NCBI GenBank assembly: GCA_041640035.1 | Contig: JBEQBC010000006.1 | Coordinates: 1-34,657, forward strand | DNA: 34,657 bases | Origin: Candidatus Nanohaloarchaea archaeon | GTDB taxonomy: Archaea; Nanohalarchaeota; Nanosalinia; Nanosalinales; Nanosalinaceae | Direction of reading: 5' to 3' | In this document: piece after piece, positions 599-6,630 of the stretch | Numbering within the stretch: the first letter of the stretch is position 1 | Layout: the number at the start of each line of letters is the position of its first letter | The notes under the pieces: generated by a model | The model's database searches: none | Told to the model about the DNA's origin: nothing | Seen by the model: the letters and a program-made list of their open reading frames with translations, nothing else | Position numbers and translations under genes: made by a program

Positions 599-1312
599 TC
601 ATGGCTGGTCGCTGAGTTCGTTCAGTCTGTCCATGCTTCTGATTACAGCTGCGGTGAAACCTATCTTGGCTGACAGATCCAGTACTGTGAAGAGGACGAA
701 TGACGGTGCGAACTCTATCAGTCCGAGTCCTTCGGAACTCAGTGTCCAGATAACCGGGTAGATAGCCCATAGCCATATGATGATGGTTTGAAGATCTTCG
801 TAAAGTATCCGGACTGCTTCTGGACCTTCTTCCGCTTTCTTGCTGGCTTTCCGTGTGAGGAATATGATGATTGCTATCAGGCAAGCTACTGAAACAGCCA
901 GAGGAATGAATCGTGTTGGTGCCGGCATTATGGCTGCGGCGAATCCTGTGGCTATCATCAGTACATCCAGCATTATCAGTTTGAAAGCGGTTTTATCCTT
1001 TCCTACCAGTACTGACAGTCCGAACAGGAGTAACGGTGTTGAGATACCCCATTCGAAGTATCTGAGGAAAGGTATCATCCTTCCGGATATCTCGATGAAG
1101 CCCAGTCCTGTGGACATAAGCAGGTAGGATAAAGCGGATGTCAGTGGCACGATCGACAGCACTACGATGAATGTATCTCTGTAGTCAAGGCCAAAGGATA
1201 ATCCACCGAAATCCGCATCCGATCTTATCGCGTATCTGAGAAACCAGATGAAGGTGGCCAGAAACAGAAGCCCGCCACCTAAAGCGGTGTAATCAACAAG
1301 GCTTAGATTCAT
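599..1312 (-). CDS. Microbial (type-1) rhodopsin with atypical E-S-G motif
   Basis: Seven hydrophobic helices; helix C RYFEWGISTPLLL; helix D DVLMIATG; helix F LWAIYPVIW..SEG; helix G LDLSAKIGF with the Schiff-base Lys216. Confidence 0.95.
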   Translation of the reverse strand: MNLSLVDYTALGGGLLFLATFIWFLRYAIRSDADFGGLSFGLDYRDTFIVVLSIVPLTSALSYLLMSTGLGFIEISGRMIPFLRYFEWGISTPLLLFGLSVLVGKDKTAFKLIMLDVLMIATGFAAAIMPAPTRFIPLAVSVACLIAIIIFLTRKASKKAEEGPEAVRILYEDLQTIIIWLWAIYPVIWTLSSEGLGLIEFAPSFVLFTVLDLSAKIGFTAAVIRSMDRLNELSDQP

Positions 1313-1382
1313 AAATAGCAGTTGTATTACCGGATTAAAAAGGTCATCCGTCCCACAAAGAAAACCTGTACAAGTTAGACCG

Positions 1383-1540: not shown

Positions 1541-1849
1541 TTATCTTCCAGTGTTTTCCTCTATCCAGTCCAGGAAGTCTTGGTTGCCGTCAATCTCTGT
1601 GTATTCGATGATCGGTGTCTCATCCGAATGAATTTCGCGGACTTTGTCGATTATCTCCTGCTTGTGGCTTTCTACTGTGTATGCGTTGATGTTGTAGTAT
1701 GTTTCGTTGACTATCTCTCCTTTCCAATGGTATCGTGAGTCACCGTCCACGATAAGTGTGCCGGCTAGAAGGTTTTTCTCGAGAAGTTCGTCACATATTT
1801 TTTCGGCTTCTTTCTTGGAGGTTGCGGAGATGACAGCTTTCAGATGCAT
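1541..1849 (-). CDS. cutA: Divalent-cation tolerance protein CutA
   Basis: EAEKICDELLEKNLLAG, SRYHWKGEI, HSDETPII, GNQDFLDWI match CutA1; start moved to the ATG at 1849. Confidence 0.9.
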   Translation of the reverse strand: MHLKAVISATSKKEAEKICDELLEKNLLAGTLIVDGDSRYHWKGEIVNETYYNINAYTVESHKQEIIDKVREIHSDETPIIEYTEIDGNQDFLDWIEENTGR

Positions 1850-1880
1850 AGGATGTATTCGGATTTTCAATGTAAAAAAT

Positions 1881-1905
1881 TTGTTCACATCGTAGAAACG
1901 AACAA
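1881..1905. promoter_or_regulatory. Inverted repeat between the divergent cutA and HTH-LAGLIDADG genes (possible operator)
   Basis: TTGTTC(1881-1886)-N13-GAACAA(1900-1905), next to a TATA-like AATATAAG. Confidence 0.35.
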
Positions 1906-1938: not shown

Positions 1939-3489
1939 ATGGGTCAGAGTTCTTTGAGTTCGTACGGTGCGGGAGAACCGGAAGAGCCTTTCCTCCCGAG
2001 CAATGCCGATCAACTGGTAGAGTACCTTGATGGAGACAGTGATGACTATGAACAGATCAAGCTGTATGAACATCCGGATCAGGGTCTCGGTGAGTACACG
2101 AGAAGCAGAAGAGAAGAACTCGGAATGACTCAGAGAGAACTGGCCGAACAGATTTCAGCAGGTGACAGAAACCATGTCAGCAATTGGGAAAGAGAAGTCA
2201 CGATGCCTCAAGAATACCTTGAAGTCGCAGAGGTACTTGGTATCGATCCACGATGGTTCCAGGACAAAAAGAATGGTAATGGAGGCATCTCTAACTTTGT
2301 AGAAGGCGGCCTATCTGACTCTGCGATAGAAGTTGTCGAAGGAGGGCTACTAGGCGATGGATCCCTTTCCAAAGCGGACGGTCATGCACCTCAGTACACA
2401 CAGGCATCCATGGACCGTAGATATGTCTCATGGCTGAAAGATGAACTAGGGGACCATGGAATCGCAGCTTCTGCTCTCCGTGAAGATGAAAAGAAATGGA
2501 ACAACACGCACACACTCAAAACTCTGTGCTACCCCGAGTTCGAGGAACTGGAAGAGCGCTGGTACGATGATATCGATGATGTACTGGATGAATTAGATGA
2601 TGAAGACGAACTTGAACGGATTAAGAAACGGGAGGGGCAAGGTCATGACCGGGTTAAGAGAGTGCCTGATGACTTGGAGATGACTCCTGAGAAACTTCTT
2701 CACCTGCATCTCGGAGATGGATCACTTTTGAGACAGGAAGGAACAGGCAGAGGAAGTGGTCGGCCTTGGGTAACACTATATGTGAACGGATTCCTGAGAG
2801 AAGATATTGAGAACATAGCTGATGCATTAGATGAACAGGGGATAGATACTGCTATACATAAGAACAAAGATGATTACGCCTTGAAAGTGCTTCAGGATGA
2901 TGTAGCAGATTATTACAGTTTCCTGCCGGACACACCTGAGGACTTAGAGGATGTCGAATCCAGTAAAGGTTACGAGTTCAGCAAAAAGTGGCCTCAGTAC
3001 GATGATAAATTAAAGATGGTGGCGAAATGGGATGGAGTACATGACCTAATACAGGAACACCGGCTTAACCATGAGATAAAGACCAACGACTTCAGCGATG
3101 TCATAGGCTACGGAAGCAACGGTATATCCAAGGTAGAGGATGAATCCAAGCCCCAGTTCGATACCTTCCAGACGATTGTAGATGAACTTGAGATAGATAT
3201 AGAGGGGGCATGGAACGAAATGAAAGGCGGAACAAGACAGTCTAGGTTCCATGTAACAGAAGATAACCGGTTTAATGTCAACTGGAGAGGAGAAACATTA
3301 GGACTTCCTCTTACGCCTGAAAACGCTTCCGAACTGGTCCCTGAGATGAGAGATGAGACAGGACTCAGTCAGAGAGCGCTGGCAGAAAGAACAGATGTAA
3401 GCCGTACCGGTGTTCAGGGTATAGAGTACGGTAAAACGACTCCGACACGCTGGACACTGAAGAAATTGGCCAGAGGACTTGCAGACTGA
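1939..3489 (+). CDS. XRE-HTH + LAGLIDADG_2-type endonuclease + two XRE-HTH fusion protein
   Basis: HTH aa ~50-107 (RREELGMTQRELAEQI..VSNWE); LAGLIDADG helices GGLLGD140GSL and LHLGD260GSL, with TLCYPEFEELEERWY and KRVPDDLEMTP; HTH aa ~368-422; HTH aa ~466-514 (RDETGLSQRALAERTDVSRTGVQGIEYG). Confidence 0.85.
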   Translation: MGQSSLSSYGAGEPEEPFLPSNADQLVEYLDGDSDDYEQIKLYEHPDQGLGEYTRSRREELGMTQRELAEQISAGDRNHVSNWEREVTMPQEYLEVAEVLGIDPRWFQDKKNGNGGISNFVEGGLSDSAIEVVEGGLLGDGSLSKADGHAPQYTQASMDRRYVSWLKDELGDHGIAASALREDEKKWNNTHTLKTLCYPEFEELEERWYDDIDDVLDELDDEDELERIKKREGQGHDRVKRVPDDLEMTPEKLLHLHLGDGSLLRQEGTGRGSGRPWVTLYVNGFLREDIENIADALDEQGIDTAIHKNKDDYALKVLQDDVADYYSFLPDTPEDLEDVESSKGYEFSKKWPQYDDKLKMVAKWDGVHDLIQEHRLNHEIKTNDFSDVIGYGSNGISKVEDESKPQFDTFQTIVDELEIDIEGAWNEMKGGTRQSRFHVTEDNRFNVNWRGETLGLPLTPENASELVPEMRDETGLSQRALAERTDVSRTGVQGIEYGKTTPTRWTLKKLARGLAD

Positions 3490-4685: not shown

Positions 4686-5252
4686 GTGAAAGCCGACTAC
4701 AACGAAATATACGAACTGGAAGAAGAAGCATTCGAATGGCTTGACATGGCTGAAGAATTCTTCAAACACGACGGCAGCTTCAGCTACGGCGAAAAACGAA
4801 ATAACAGCGTTGCAAGAGCAGGAGAAAGATACGAGTCCATAGAAGAAGAGTACAGACAGCTTCAAAAAATGCATGAAGCAGTTCCAGAACATACTGTCGA
4901 GCCTTTAATGCCTGTATACAGTGATGGCGAAATGGTCGGTTTCTATATGGAGAGATTTGAAGGCGAGATACTGAAAGACTACCTCCTCGACCTCGGTAAC
5001 AAGGAGGACATCATGGAAGGTCTTGATCTGGTAGACGATGTTGAATCAGCGATTGAGGAGATGCATGAACAGGATGTGGTTCACGGAGACCTCACCAATA
5101 ATATCCTTTATGATGGAGAGAATTTCAAGTTCTTCGATCCTGTAGGCGTGCCGAAAACTGATGAAGCGTTTGAAGAGATGAAAGAATGGGATGAGGGAAC
5201 CCCGGAAAGACTGCGGGAATCCGCGAAGATGCCTTTCCAGGACTTTCTCTGA
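4686..5252 (+). CDS. Minimal protein-kinase-like (RIO/Bud32/Kdo-type) protein
   Basis: EEEYRQL (helix C), FYMERFEG hinge, MHEQDVVHGDLTNNIL, FKFFDP. Confidence 0.75.
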   Translation: MKADYNEIYELEEEAFEWLDMAEEFFKHDGSFSYGEKRNNSVARAGERYESIEEEYRQLQKMHEAVPEHTVEPLMPVYSDGEMVGFYMERFEGEILKDYLLDLGNKEDIMEGLDLVDDVESAIEEMHEQDVVHGDLTNNILYDGENFKFFDPVGVPKTDEAFEEMKEWDEGTPERLRESAKMPFQDFL

Positions 5253-5257
5253 TTTTT

Positions 5258-5581
5258 CTATCCTAGCATCCCACCGATGTATTCTATACCGTATCTCATG
5301 ATTGCTCCTGCCAGCCATGCGATAAGAGCGATCGCCAGTCCGAACAATCTGTCATCGTTGTAAATCCTGGCGGCGTAACCTATGAACAGGATAGCTCCGA
5401 TTATTGGGAAAGGGATTAATCCCAGTAGTATACCTATTCCCGCCAGTTTCAATGCCTGAGTCAGTCTTACATCTCTTGAAGGAGGTAAAAGCCATTTTGC
5501 GGATGCGTGTATGACTGCGACTCGGATAGCGAAAACTACGAATAGTGTAAGAATCAGGATAGAGATGTCTATAAGCGCCAT
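5258..5581 (-). CDS. Small multi-pass membrane protein
   Basis: Three to four hydrophobic segments; probable start ATG at 5581 (MALIDIS). Confidence 0.7.
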   Translation of the reverse strand: MALIDISILILTLFVVFAIRVAVIHASAKWLLPPSRDVRLTQALKLAGIGILLGLIPFPIIGAILFIGYAARIYNDDRLFGLAIALIAWLAGAIMRYGIEYIGGMLG

Positions 5582-5662
5582 AATCCATTCTGTAAATCTA
5601 GCGGTACAAAAAACCTTTCCTGGCCCGGAATTTTTATTCATCAAACAAGTCAACAGGAAATT

Positions 5663-6028
5663 ATGCTGGCAGCCTACTTGGTGATGACTCTAGGCTTCCT
5701 TTTCTTCCTCAGCCCGTTGATCATGTTCCTTACCAGTGTTGCCTCACTGGTTATCACGGTTCCTCTTTCAGTGTATGGGCTTCTGACGATGGCAGCAGCT
5801 TACACAGCGAAGGATGAGGACAAGTGGCTTCCGATAGCTTTCATCATAGCTTTCATAGGGATTGTCCTCATCGTTGGTTTTGTCGGAGGCGGTATCTTGA
5901 AGCAGAACGGTTTCCGTCCCGGAGGCATAATATCGATCCTTTCACTCGTGATCCTGATCTTCCTTGATATAAGCCTGTTCTCAATCGTGATGAAGATGGA
6001 AGTCTTCAACTACATGGATGAGGATTGA
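5663..6028 (+). CDS. Four-TM membrane protein
   Basis: Hydrophobic ORF divergent from the previous gene. Confidence 0.7.
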   Translation: MLAAYLVMTLGFLFFLSPLIMFLTSVASLVITVPLSVYGLLTMAAAYTAKDEDKWLPIAFIIAFIGIVLIVGFVGGGILKQNGFRPGGIISILSLVILIFLDISLFSIVMKMEVFNYMDED

Positions 6029-6031
6029 TTG

Positions 6032-6051
6032 GTTCGATTTTATGCGAACAG
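6032..6051 (+). promoter_or_regulatory. Palindromic site GTTCG-N8-CGAAC(AG) upstream of the TATA box of TPTPC paralog 1
   Basis: GTTCG ATTTTATG CGAACAG; the right arm starts 49 nt before ATG 6094; TTTTTATAA at 6061. Confidence 0.6.
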
Positions 6052-6093
6052 TCTAAACGGTTTTTATAATGGATACGGTCCTAAAAACTGTTT

Positions 6094-6630
6094 ATGAAGA
6101 AAACAACACTCACTCTGATCACTTTATCTCTTGTCGTTTCAGGATCTGCGGTAGTTGGGGGACCGAATCCTGACGACGGTATGGCTATCACATCTTCAGA
6201 TGGATCTGCATCTGCGTCCCAGGGCGTTAGCCCTGAAGGAACAGAATATATATCGTATTTCTCTGTGTTCAATGTCACCCAAAGCAATGAGACAGGGATA
6301 ACAGATTTCAGCTGGGAGAACGACACTGTAAGCTTTGAAGGCGTATACAGAACGCCGACACCCTGTTACGATCTTCAGCATGATGTGGACCGAAACGGTA
6401 ACAGCTACCAGTTCGATATTACTTCGAAGGAGACCGGAAACGGGACATGTGCTCAGGTAATAACCTATCAGGAGTACAGGGCGAACTTCACAGCCGATCA
6501 CGCCTACGAACTGAATGTAACTCACAGCGGAGAACAGGTAGAGGTCTTCCAGCATCCGGACCTTGGAGATGGACCTGAAAACGGATTTTTCTCCCAGCTT
6601 ATAGGCCTCATAATAGGTCTGTTTAGCTGA
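6094..6630 (+). CDS. Secreted TPTPC / C-x-QV beta-domain protein (PrcB C-terminal-like), paralog 1
   Basis: Signal peptide; VSFEGVYRTPTPCYDL...TCAQVITYQEYRANF; C-terminal GFFSQLIGLIIGLFS. Confidence 0.8.
   Translation: MKKTTLTLITLSLVVSGSAVVGGPNPDDGMAITSSDGSASASQGVSPEGTEYISYFSVFNVTQSNETGITDFSWENDTVSFEGVYRTPTPCYDLQHDVDRNGNSYQFDITSKETGNGTCAQVITYQEYRANFTADHAYELNVTHSGEQVEVFQHPDLGDGPENGFFSQLIGLIIGLFS

Follow-up and report, generated by a model that had tools for sequence, protein, structure and literature searches.

A Nanohaloarchaeal Rhodopsin with an E-S-G Motif, from a Rare and Apparently Unstudied Branch, as a Candidate Proton Pump

The rhodopsin gene and its genomic context

The window analyzed here, that is, the whole stretch of 34,657 nucleotides at the start of contig JBEQBC010000006.1 of a Candidatus Nanohaloarchaea archaeon, carries on its minus strand a rhodopsin gene (599..1312), which according to the open reading frame list and its translation runs in one intact frame from an ATG start through 237 codons to a TGA stop (599-601) and encodes a protein of 237 aa, P0001. 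The protein matched the profile PF01036 with 135.4 bits (cut-off 24.6; E 2.6e-39), and this was the sole PF01036 match of the whole genome; a search of NCBIfam gave no family matching P0001, and the ESM Atlas returned only generic PF01036 clusters, at 0.92. [quoted passage not shown] By its profile match, its seven helices, and its helix-G lysine, P0001 is a type-1 (microbial) rhodopsin, and it is predicted to bind retinal. A TATA-like element, TTTTTAAT (1334..1341, minus strand), noticed on inspection of the sequence at 22-29 nt upstream of the ATG, is a possible archaeal promoter, which would give rise to a leaderless transcript. When sequencing runs were searched with the gene, no RNA run was listed, and the sole full match was a metagenome from a hypersaline lake, possibly the source itself, so that this match was uninformative on the expression of the gene.

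The upstream neighbor on the same strand encodes a CutA1-family protein of 115 aa (1541..1888, minus strand; Pfam PF03091, E 1.2e-17), which is given here as context only. As the initial annotation had stated, neither a transducer gene nor a retinal-synthesis gene adjoins the rhodopsin gene in the window. We compared this neighborhood with those of related rhodopsin genes at four loci (L003, L004, L005, and L030). A CutA1 gene next to the rhodopsin gene was seen at none of the four, the downstream 171-aa open reading frame of the window had no counterpart beside the L003 rhodopsin gene, and no neighbor was common to the window and these loci, save for DUF7504 genes at L004, L005, and L030. DUF7504 is a KaiC-like family, for which the background rate in genomes of the class is 0-3 matches per roughly 1 Mb. 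DUF7504 genes flank the rhodopsin gene on both sides at L004, a divergent copy lies 74 bp upstream of the rhodopsin gene at L030, and a copy next to a photolyase gene lies ~1 kb from the rhodopsin gene at L005. These four rhodopsin-adjacent proteins were 29-35% identical with 30 invariant columns, and no Walker A motif of the GxxGxGKT type was seen when the four aligned copies were read by eye. DUF7504 was absent beside the rhodopsin gene both in the window and at L003, which is its closest relative among the compared loci; the sole DUF7504 match of the genome itself covered profile positions 84-179 only and lay on another contig, and a comparable partial match was also found in rhodopsin-less kin. 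A complex prediction for the L030 rhodopsin and its DUF7504 neighbor scored 0.15 against a mark of 0.32, which is evidence neither way. In addition, the MCP-signaling domain PF00015 had no match in the genome, which is 89% complete, the control being positive in 8 of 14 genomes.

With regard to retinal supply, neither Blh, CCD, or any other known carotenoid-cleaving enzyme nor a CrtI-type gene was found in the genome, which holds phytoene-synthase-like and lycopene-cyclase genes. The rhodopsin gene is not in or near a crtY-blh cluster, whereas in four genomes (G024, G055, G056, and G060) such a cluster holds or neighbors the xenorhodopsin gene. The earlier suggestion that the protein may use retinal derived from the host stood only in part: it fits the missing Blh and CCD genes, but of the 12 genomes of the class with a xenorhodopsin, 7 likewise lack Blh, and carotenoid genes are present.

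Active-site residues and the E-(S/T)-G clade

Residues were assigned by codon-by-codon reading and by alignment to solved chains and 151 relatives (a 152-protein alignment), and equivalent positions are given in BR numbering. The anchors RY.DW...TTP and D..AK of P0001 aligned unambiguously in the HMMER alignments, and BR positions 82/85/89/96/212/216 correspond to R84/E87/S91/G98/D212/K216 (RESGDK). Glu87 (codon GAA, 1052..1054, minus strand, as are all codons below) occupies the position of BR Asp85, the Schiff-base counterion and proton acceptor, and Glu is found there in 16 of the 17 rows of the clade described below. Ser91 (TCA, 1040..1042) lies at the position of BR Thr89, where 15 of the 17 clade rows have Ser or Thr and the two EGG rows have Gly, and Gly98 (GGA, 1019..1021) lies at that of BR Asp96, the cytoplasmic proton donor; Gly is fixed at this donor position in 16 of the 17 rows, without drift among hydrophobic residues. 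Arg84 (AGA, 1061..1063) corresponds to BR Arg82, and the D212-L-S-A-K216 stretch of helix G (665..679) holds the second counterion, D212, and the retinal-binding lysine, K216. Ser204 (TCA, 701..703) aligned with BR Glu204, which is part of the proton-release group; Ser at this position was found in 10 of the 13 core rows of the clade versus 1% of 87 other rhodopsins. Further equivalents are D116 (BR D115), M119 (M118), and P137/L138 (W137/W138), whereas W182, Y185, P186, W189, and E194 of BR are all kept; the T46 position is Leu, and helix B (residues 44-67) contains no Glu and no His. Thus, every residue named in the initial annotation, E87/S91/G98 included, was confirmed. The same annotation had proposed an altered ring pocket: the W137/W138 change is real, but it carries less weight than was claimed, Phe, Tyr, and Leu being common at the W138 position in the other rhodopsins surveyed.

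In the 13-row alignment A1, whose members are 31-83% identical to P0001, R84, W88, W182, D212, and K216 were invariant, E87, T92, M119, and Y185 were conserved in at least 90%, and D116, P186, and W189, read in the 152-protein alignment, were each kept in 11 of the 13 rows. Because Glu at position 85 was retained among relatives just 31-43% identical, Glu87 is more than a chance substitution, and the conservation pattern argues that the carboxylate at the acceptor position is under selection.

An exhaustive search and a careful 61-row tree placed P0001 in a 17-row clade (UFBoot 98/SH-aLRT 93), which was also obtained in a quick tree of 117 rows (SH-aLRT 97) and has the motif R-E-(S/T)-G-D-K at BR positions 82/85/89/96/212/216. 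In the careful tree, the named haloarchaeal BRs (99/85), the distant xenorhodopsins (100/99), and a DTY/DTF clade (100/99), called sensory-type by motif alone, were each separate from it, and the DTG rows grouped with the DTS and xenorhodopsin side. The profile of the clade gave 284-330 bits for clade members and no more than 170 for even the best BRs. One member, P0012, departs from the motif, with Val in place of Glu at 85 and Ser in place of Gly at 96, and one relative that is 66% identical to P0001 carries the name "bacteriorhodopsin" at NCBI. The nearest named or solved relatives by sequence were haloarchaeal proton pumps, and HwMR of Haloquadratum walsbyi scored about equally.

A 13-row core of the clade, P0001 included, is further marked by a conserved A-B loop insertion and by the predominance of Ser at the E204 position. 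The insertion together with Asp46 (residues 35-46, FGGLSFGLDYRD; 1175..1210, minus strand) has the motif F-(S/T)-x-G-x-x-Y-x-D. The conserved insertion itself is six residues long and lies on the cytoplasmic side; S39, G41, Y44, and D46 were kept in 11-13 of the 13 core rows, and the inserted columns were gaps in 97-100% of the 87 other rhodopsins. In the model, this loop connects helices 8-30 and 44-67, with Asp46 beginning helix B, and the PDB profile matches to the clade start only from position 46.

The phylogeny and the survey of the E-S-G motif, both of which had been called for earlier, thus showed that the orthologues keep Glu, and no characterized clade with this motif was found. No published description of the E-(S/T)-G clade was found, although catalogues such as that of 3,022 ion-pumping rhodopsins (PMC7979833) might include members; "ETG" or "ESG" was not found in the literature as a microbial rhodopsin motif, and the nanohaloarchaeal rhodopsin literature examined mentioned only xenorhodopsins or generic rhodopsins. 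Viral contigs gave 32 pattern matches, with no relative of P0001 among them. These results suggest that the E-(S/T)-G clade is a small and rare branch of the rhodopsins, phylogenetically separate and apparently unstudied. Of 70 genomes surveyed in the same class, 12 carried a xenorhodopsin, in every case with Pro at the D212 position, and four carried the E-(S/T)-G type, one of whose copies (in G004) is split over two reading frames; both types were found together in none.

Comparison with known rhodopsins and proposed function

P0001 shares with the haloarchaeal BR-type pumps (BR, archaerhodopsins, cruxrhodopsin, deltarhodopsin, and HmBRI) the seven-helix fold with the B-C hairpin, the equivalents of R82, Y83, W86, T90, D115, M118, W182, Y185, P186, W189, E194, D212, and K216, and a cytoplasmic RPE motif in the E-F loop, at about 29-38% identity. 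It is set apart from them by Glu for D85, Ser for T89, Gly for D96, Ser for E204, and Pro/Leu for W137/W138, by the A-B loop insertion, and by its own clade. Its combination of a carboxylate acceptor and Gly at the donor position recalls the DTG-type bacterial rhodopsins, which pump protons without a carboxylic donor, and the BR D96G mutant; the BR D85E mutant, too, reportedly still pumps protons. However, the DTG rhodopsins have Asp at position 85 and lie elsewhere in the tree, and the two BR mutants are artificial. Like P0001, sensory rhodopsins I and II have no carboxylic donor, and SRII was as similar in structure as BR, but P0001 has ESG instead of DTY or DTF and no Htr/MCP gene was found in its genome. 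Anion pumps (TSA, NTQ, and TSD) need an uncharged position 85, where P0001 has Glu87. In channelrhodopsins, Glu at the D85 position is the rule, as in P0001, but the glutamates of their pore-lining helix 2 are missing from it.

Xenorhodopsins, which are the class's other type of rhodopsin, occur in the same host group, and the nanohaloarchaeal NsXeR is reported to be an inward proton pump (PMC5609834, PMC3198991). The motif is given as RDTDDK for BR and as WDSAPK for NsXeR (PMC5609834). Xenorhodopsins have (W/F)-D-S-A-P-K together with the helix-B His of a His-Asp acceptor pair, whereas P0001 has R-E-S-G-D-K without that His. A xenorhodopsin identity was therefore rejected (no Trp82, no Pro212, and no helix-B His), and the identity of a host-derived BR was rejected by the tree, which bears out the initial annotation that the protein is neither. 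HwMR (PDB 9jws, 8xhw) was the best single-sequence match of P0001 among solved structures (107.6 bits, E 7.3e-30), and both proteins combine a scaffold of the haloarchaeal type with a carboxylate at the D85 position. HwMR is reported to use light to carry Mg2+ inward, the residue at the D85 position being one Mg2+ binding site and T216 a second (PMC12078690). Where HwMR has D-T-D, with Asp at its D84 site, Thr216 before the Lys, and D95, P0001 has E-S-G, with Glu87, Ala215, and Gly98, and orthology with HwMR was rejected as T216 and D95 are not kept. Under the clade profile, HwMR (159.9 bits) was no closer than ordinary pumps (159.0 for 6kfq and 158.4 for the BR-I chains).

We tentatively propose, at a likelihood that falls a little short of even, that P0001 uses light to pump protons outward, with Glu87 as the acceptor and no carboxylic donor; here we infer the ion, the direction, and the kinetics from the sequence. 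Light would isomerize all-trans retinal on Lys216, and the Schiff-base proton would pass to Glu87, which together with Arg84, Asp212, Tyr63, Tyr185, and Trp88 would make up a complex resembling that of BR. With Ser at position 204, the Glu194/Glu204 release pair would be incomplete when the proton exits to the extracellular side. Gly98 and Leu at the T46 position leave no internal carboxylic donor for reprotonation of the Schiff base, whose new proton would come from the cytoplasm. Without such a donor, a slow and pH-dependent cycle would be expected, as in DTG-type pumps. In favor of a pump, R84, W88, D212, K216, E87, T92, and Y185 are conserved in the clade, a set that is the extracellular active site of outward pumps; haloarchaeal proton pumps are the nearest named and solved relatives; and the lack of an MCP domain match in the genome and of an adjacent transducer argues against phototaxis signaling. 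The distribution of the two types, 12 and 4 of 70 genomes and never both, likewise fits two alternative ion-moving rhodopsins. Against it, P0012 with Val85 cannot use a Glu acceptor and suits a sensor better, Leu at the T46 position is as in sensory rhodopsins, the conserved cytoplasmic A-B insertion is unusual for a pump and may be a docking surface, the KaiC-like DUF7504 neighbor at three related loci hints at signaling, and the genome yielded no enzyme that would form retinal. Furthermore, HwMR is reported to have the full DTD motif yet not to pump protons (PMC12078690), so function calls based on motifs are fallible.

The main rival explanation, which is possible but which we regard as doubtful, is that P0001 is a photosensor or regulator whose light-induced motion at the cytoplasmic face is sensed by a partner other than Htr/MCP, either soluble or in the membrane; in a variant of it, the A-B insertion could be the contact surface and the DUF7504 neighbor the partner in some lineages. 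Such a role would agree with an insertion that is clade-specific, conserved, and cytoplasmic, with the adjacency of DUF7504 at L004, L030, and L005 despite its low background rate, with the missing cytoplasmic donor, and with P0012, which has no acceptor carboxylate. However, no DUF7504 gene lies beside the rhodopsin gene in the window or at L003, the match in the genome itself is partial, on another contig, and present also in rhodopsin-less kin, no Htr/MCP domain was found in the genome, and the full counterion complex is conserved, which a sensor would not strictly require. A transport activity of another kind, whether an inward H+ pump replacing xenorhodopsin, a light-driven or light-gated transporter of cations (divalent ones included), or a channel, appears improbable to us. 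The replacement of xenorhodopsin by the E-(S/T)-G type, the top single-sequence match to HwMR, the "divalent ion tolerance" gene CutA1 directly upstream, and the channelrhodopsin-like Glu at the D85 position all point toward it; on the other side, T216 and D95 of HwMR are replaced by Ala215 and Gly98, the affinity to HwMR is lost under the clade profile, the xenorhodopsin hallmarks are missing, residues 44-67 hold no Glu such as those of channelrhodopsin helix 2, and the CutA1 adjacency was seen at none of the four compared loci.

It is very unlikely that P0001 is an ordinary BR acquired from a haloarchaeal host with an inconsequential, conservative Asp-to-Glu change, as the NCBI name of its 66%-identical relative and the haloarchaeal BRs among its nearest named proteins might suggest, since its identity to BRs is only about 35-38%, the clade profile and the tree separate it from them, and D96, E204, and W137/W138 are all changed in addition to the clade-specific insertion. 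We give just as little credence to the idea of a relic that has lost retinal binding or expression. The broken relative in G004 and the failure to find Blh, CCD, or CrtI-type genes in the genome would fit such a relic, but the P0001 frame is intact and its model confident, Lys216 is invariant in A1, as are W88, W182, and D212 of the pocket, with M119 and Y185 nearly so, and rhodopsin genes without blh are common, as the xenorhodopsin genomes of the class illustrate. Beyond the proposed proton pump, the E-(S/T)-G rhodopsins might constitute a new functional class, so far confined to the Nanohaloarchaeota, either of receptors that couple through the A-B insertion to cytoplasmic partners (DUF7504 in several lineages) or of pumps that take the place of xenorhodopsin and are without precedent in the ion moved or in its direction; we consider this conceivable, if rather unlikely.

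Implications for nanohaloarchaeal rhodopsins

With its Glu counterion and its fixed donor-site Gly, the E-(S/T)-G clade is a naturally occurring BR-like scaffold and could serve as a direct test bed for the effect of the length of the acceptor side chain on color, pKa, and pumping. New rhodopsin motif families have repeatedly yielded new functions or useful properties, as exemplified by xenorhodopsin and HwMR. Across the 70 class genomes, the nanohaloarchaeal symbionts carry two mutually exclusive rhodopsin types, and an E-(S/T)-G type without a crtY-blh cluster bears on whether retinal or carotenoids are taken up from the haloarchaeal host. The DUF7504 neighbor, if functional, would indicate an undescribed route of light signaling, and the receptor reading, if true, would mean that a module leading from a rhodopsin to a KaiC-like protein conveys light signals in an archaeal symbiont without chemotaxis machinery.

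The rhodopsin gene and its active site

The gene of the rhodopsin P0001 (599-1312 of the window, minus strand) is an intact 237-codon open reading frame that begins with ATG and ends with TGA. The product matched Pfam Bac_rhodopsin (E 2.6e-39; 135.4 bits, the cut-off being 24.6) and was the sole match to this family within the genome G000, an assembly of 978,572 bases in 24 contigs that is 89.3% complete and of which the window is the entire contig C6. The remainder of this contig is ordinary chromosome, with genes for an Obg-like GTPase, histidyl-tRNA synthetase, an ABC transporter with FtsX permeases, tRNA-Thr, and methyltransferases. A stretch resembling a TATA box, TTTTTAAT, is located 22-29 nt ahead of the ATG and would be compatible with the gene having its own promoter and a leaderless transcript. 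An AlphaFold2 model (103-row alignment as input; mean pLDDT 94.8, pTM 0.91) contained a B-C beta hairpin in addition to seven helices. [quoted passage not shown]

Every residue listed in the initial annotation was confirmed by codon reading, by a 152-protein MAFFT alignment, and by HMMER alignments with solved chains. The BR residues R82, D85, T89, and D96 correspond to R84, E87, S91, and G98 of P0001; D115 and M118 to D116 and M119; W137/W138 to P137/L138; and E204 to S204, while W182, Y185, P186, W189, E194, D212, and K216 are all retained. Positions follow the BR numbering, for which the alignment anchors were unambiguous.

A separate clade of Glu-type rhodopsins

Close relatives of P0001 were only two, P0002 (83% identity) and P0003 (66%), the word-index search having returned three proteins, the query included, out of 1454 candidates; P0003 is named 'MAG: bacteriorhodopsin [Candidatus Nanohaloarchaea archaeon]' at NCBI. 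An exhaustive phmmer search with P0001 against 1.84 billion representatives gave 687 matches at E<=1e-3 and only 9 at E<=1e-30. Glu was found at position 85 in 22 of the 152 aligned proteins, of which 15 were the nearest relatives of P0001 (ETG in 8, ESG in 5, and EGG in 2) and the other 7 were dispersed (ETD in 2, P0096 and P0110; ETI, ETN, ETS, ESM, and EGD in 1 each). In a quick IQ-TREE analysis of 117 rows, with proteins <200 or >300 aa left out and four xenorhodopsins added, P0001 fell within a 16-row clade (SH-aLRT 97). A second, more careful analysis, of 61 chosen rows (LG+C20+F+G4 PMSF), recovered a 17-row E-type clade, with UFBoot 98 and SH-aLRT 93, apart from three named haloarchaeal BRs (99/85), a DTY/DTF clade (100/99), and the xenorhodopsins (100/99), which upheld the earlier proposal that the protein is neither a BR nor a xenorhodopsin. 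The deeper placement of the E-type clade was weakly supported (76/80).

P0001 is thus a member of a clade rather than a one-off. Glu at 85 and Gly at 96 were each present in 16 of the 17 rows, the exception being P0012, with Val and Ser, respectively; D212 and K216 were found in all 17 and R82 in 14, with His in the two EGG rows and Lys in P0092. P0012 also has Asn at the D115 position and is thus without a carboxylate acceptor. A sister pair of the core clade, P0028 and P0070, has His at the R82 position, E-G-G, and no A-B loop insertion. A 13-member profile scored the retrieved members at 284-330 bits, compared with <=170 bits for the best haloarchaeal BRs. When the 13 core rows were compared with 87 other rhodopsins, the signature residues were F17, F86, E87, G98, S204, and I217; a cytoplasmic A-B loop insertion in the core rows bears S39, G41, and Y44, in columns gapped in 97-100% of the 87 others, and Asp46 stands where other rhodopsins have Arg or Lys. 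The clade profile aligned to solved chains from position 46 on, not before.

All 10 clusters looked up were singletons of one contig apiece. The clade members P0005 and P0153, from different sub-branches, were each reported on a 13,617-base contig and could be paralogues that share it. Two contigs of 24% GC (L031:3818-4708 and L032:3-647) encode an E-T-D rhodopsin with a Lys/Asn-rich N-terminus, which belongs to a different Glu-type lineage. In the openly available articles searched, supplementary tables aside, no description was found of an ETG or ESG rhodopsin or of a non-xenorhodopsin type in Nanohaloarchaeota, although members may be listed in a catalogue; the articles examined speak of xenorhodopsins or of unspecified rhodopsins.

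Distribution, gene neighborhoods, and retinal supply

A pattern scan of one genome per species for 185,579 species gave six matches, three of them encoding relatives: L003 in G038 (a MAG of Candidatus Nanohaloarchaea archaeon, of the same family as G000), and L004 in G014 and L005 in G004, both of the same order. A metagenome scan added a further ESG member, L030, on a 357-kb contig of 41% GC that carries ribosomal protein genes. The E-type rhodopsin of G004 (L005:7928-8640, equal to G004:C5:59089-59575) is broken over two reading frames with a garbled helix-B region; this copy is a pseudogene, or else it was misassembled. PF01036 matched in 16 of 70 genomes of the class; four (G000, G038, G014, and G004) carry the E-type rhodopsin, and the remaining 12 all have (W/F)-D-S-A-P-K, which is the xenorhodopsin motif, WDSAPK in the nanohaloarchaeal NsXeR (PMC5609834). 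None of the 70 genomes carried both types; related genomes do not count as independent cases, and much of the set is incompletely assembled, so that this mutual exclusivity is suggestive only.

Directly upstream of the P0001 gene on the same strand is a gene of the CutA1 'divalent ion tolerance' family (1541-1888), an adjacency found in none of the related loci, followed by a plus-strand gene (1939-3489) for a 516-aa HTH-LAGLIDADG-HTH protein, in which hmmscan placed HTH_3 in two stretches, with residues 469-514 scoring best, along with a LAGLIDADG_2 domain of the endonuclease family, whose best stretch is 131-211. The window and L003 rhodopsin genes share no neighbors, and neither has an adjoining DUF7504 gene. 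Genes for DUF7504 (KaiC-like, about 185 aa), all on the minus strand, lie beside the E-type rhodopsin in three loci: on either side of it in L004 (931-1500 and 2276-2824), 74 bp upstream and divergent in L030 (5318-5875), and about 1 kb away in L005 (6627-7190), there next to a DNA photolyase gene (5003-6418). DUF7504 is scarce in the class, with 0-3 matches in each genome of about 1 Mb and any at all in 29/70, which makes a chance origin of the three adjacencies unlikely. In the alignment of the four neighboring DUF7504 proteins, 30 columns are invariant and no GxxGxGKT-type Walker A motif was read. The single match in G000 covers profile positions 84-179 only, on another contig, and rhodopsin-less kin have matches of equal extent.

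In G000 there was no match to Blh/Brp (PF15461; the same model matches 7/70 class genomes), RPE65/CCD (PF03055; control matched in 2/14), or the CrtI-type amino-oxidase (PF01593; control matched in 14/14). A squalene/phytoene synthase (C8:16702-17586; E 4.7e-46; control matched in 8/14) and a lycopene-cyclase domain in two adjoining small membrane ORFs (C11:16542-17155; L024:5465-6162; control matched in 3/14) were present; thus, with desaturase, Blh, and CCD undetected, the carotenoid pathway is partial. Among the 12 xenorhodopsin genomes, Blh was detected in 5; four of these have the rhodopsin gene 1-4 kb from blh, which a cyclase-domain gene adjoins (clusters within 1-5 kb at G060:C6:2553-5034, G055:C7:465129-467609, G056:C48:10655-15918, and G024:C46:3-5606). 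Among the 4 E-type genomes it was detected in 0. The other seven xenorhodopsin genomes, including a single-contig assembly rated 98% complete, also lack Blh, so its absence is not peculiar to E-type carriers. It is plausible that retinal for P0001 is taken up from the host or the environment.

Candidate functions of P0001

The cytoplasmic half of P0001 is without a carboxylic donor, with Gly98 fixed and Leu at the T46 position, and the proton-release pair is incomplete, E194 being retained and S204 replacing E204. This Leu is sensor-like and, together with the DUF7504 neighbors, the Val85 of P0012, and the insertion conserved in the cytoplasmic loop, would point to a sensor, a role that we consider rather unlikely for P0001; no MCP/Htr domain was found in G000. 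Movement of a different ion, or in a different direction, appears more doubtful still. The top single-sequence PDB match of P0001 is the Haloquadratum walsbyi middle rhodopsin (HwMR), which has a full DTD motif yet is reported to transport Mg2+ inward rather than to pump protons (PMC12078690), and the E-type rhodopsin takes the place of the xenorhodopsin in its hosts. However, T216 and D95 of HwMR are Ala and Gly in P0001, and by the clade profile HwMR is no nearer than ordinary pumps.

The extracellular half of P0001 holds a full proton-acceptor site of the BR type, in which Glu stands in for Asp (R84, Y63, W88, E87, S91, T92, Y185, and D212); the site is conserved across the E-type clade. 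Such an acceptor site, combined with the lack of a cytoplasmic donor, matches outward proton pumps that work without a donor: pumping is retained in the D85E variant of BR, and rhodopsins with DTG pump although D96 is missing. Thus, we tentatively favor, from residue patterns, that P0001 could be a donor-less outward proton pump in which Glu87 would serve in the acceptor site.
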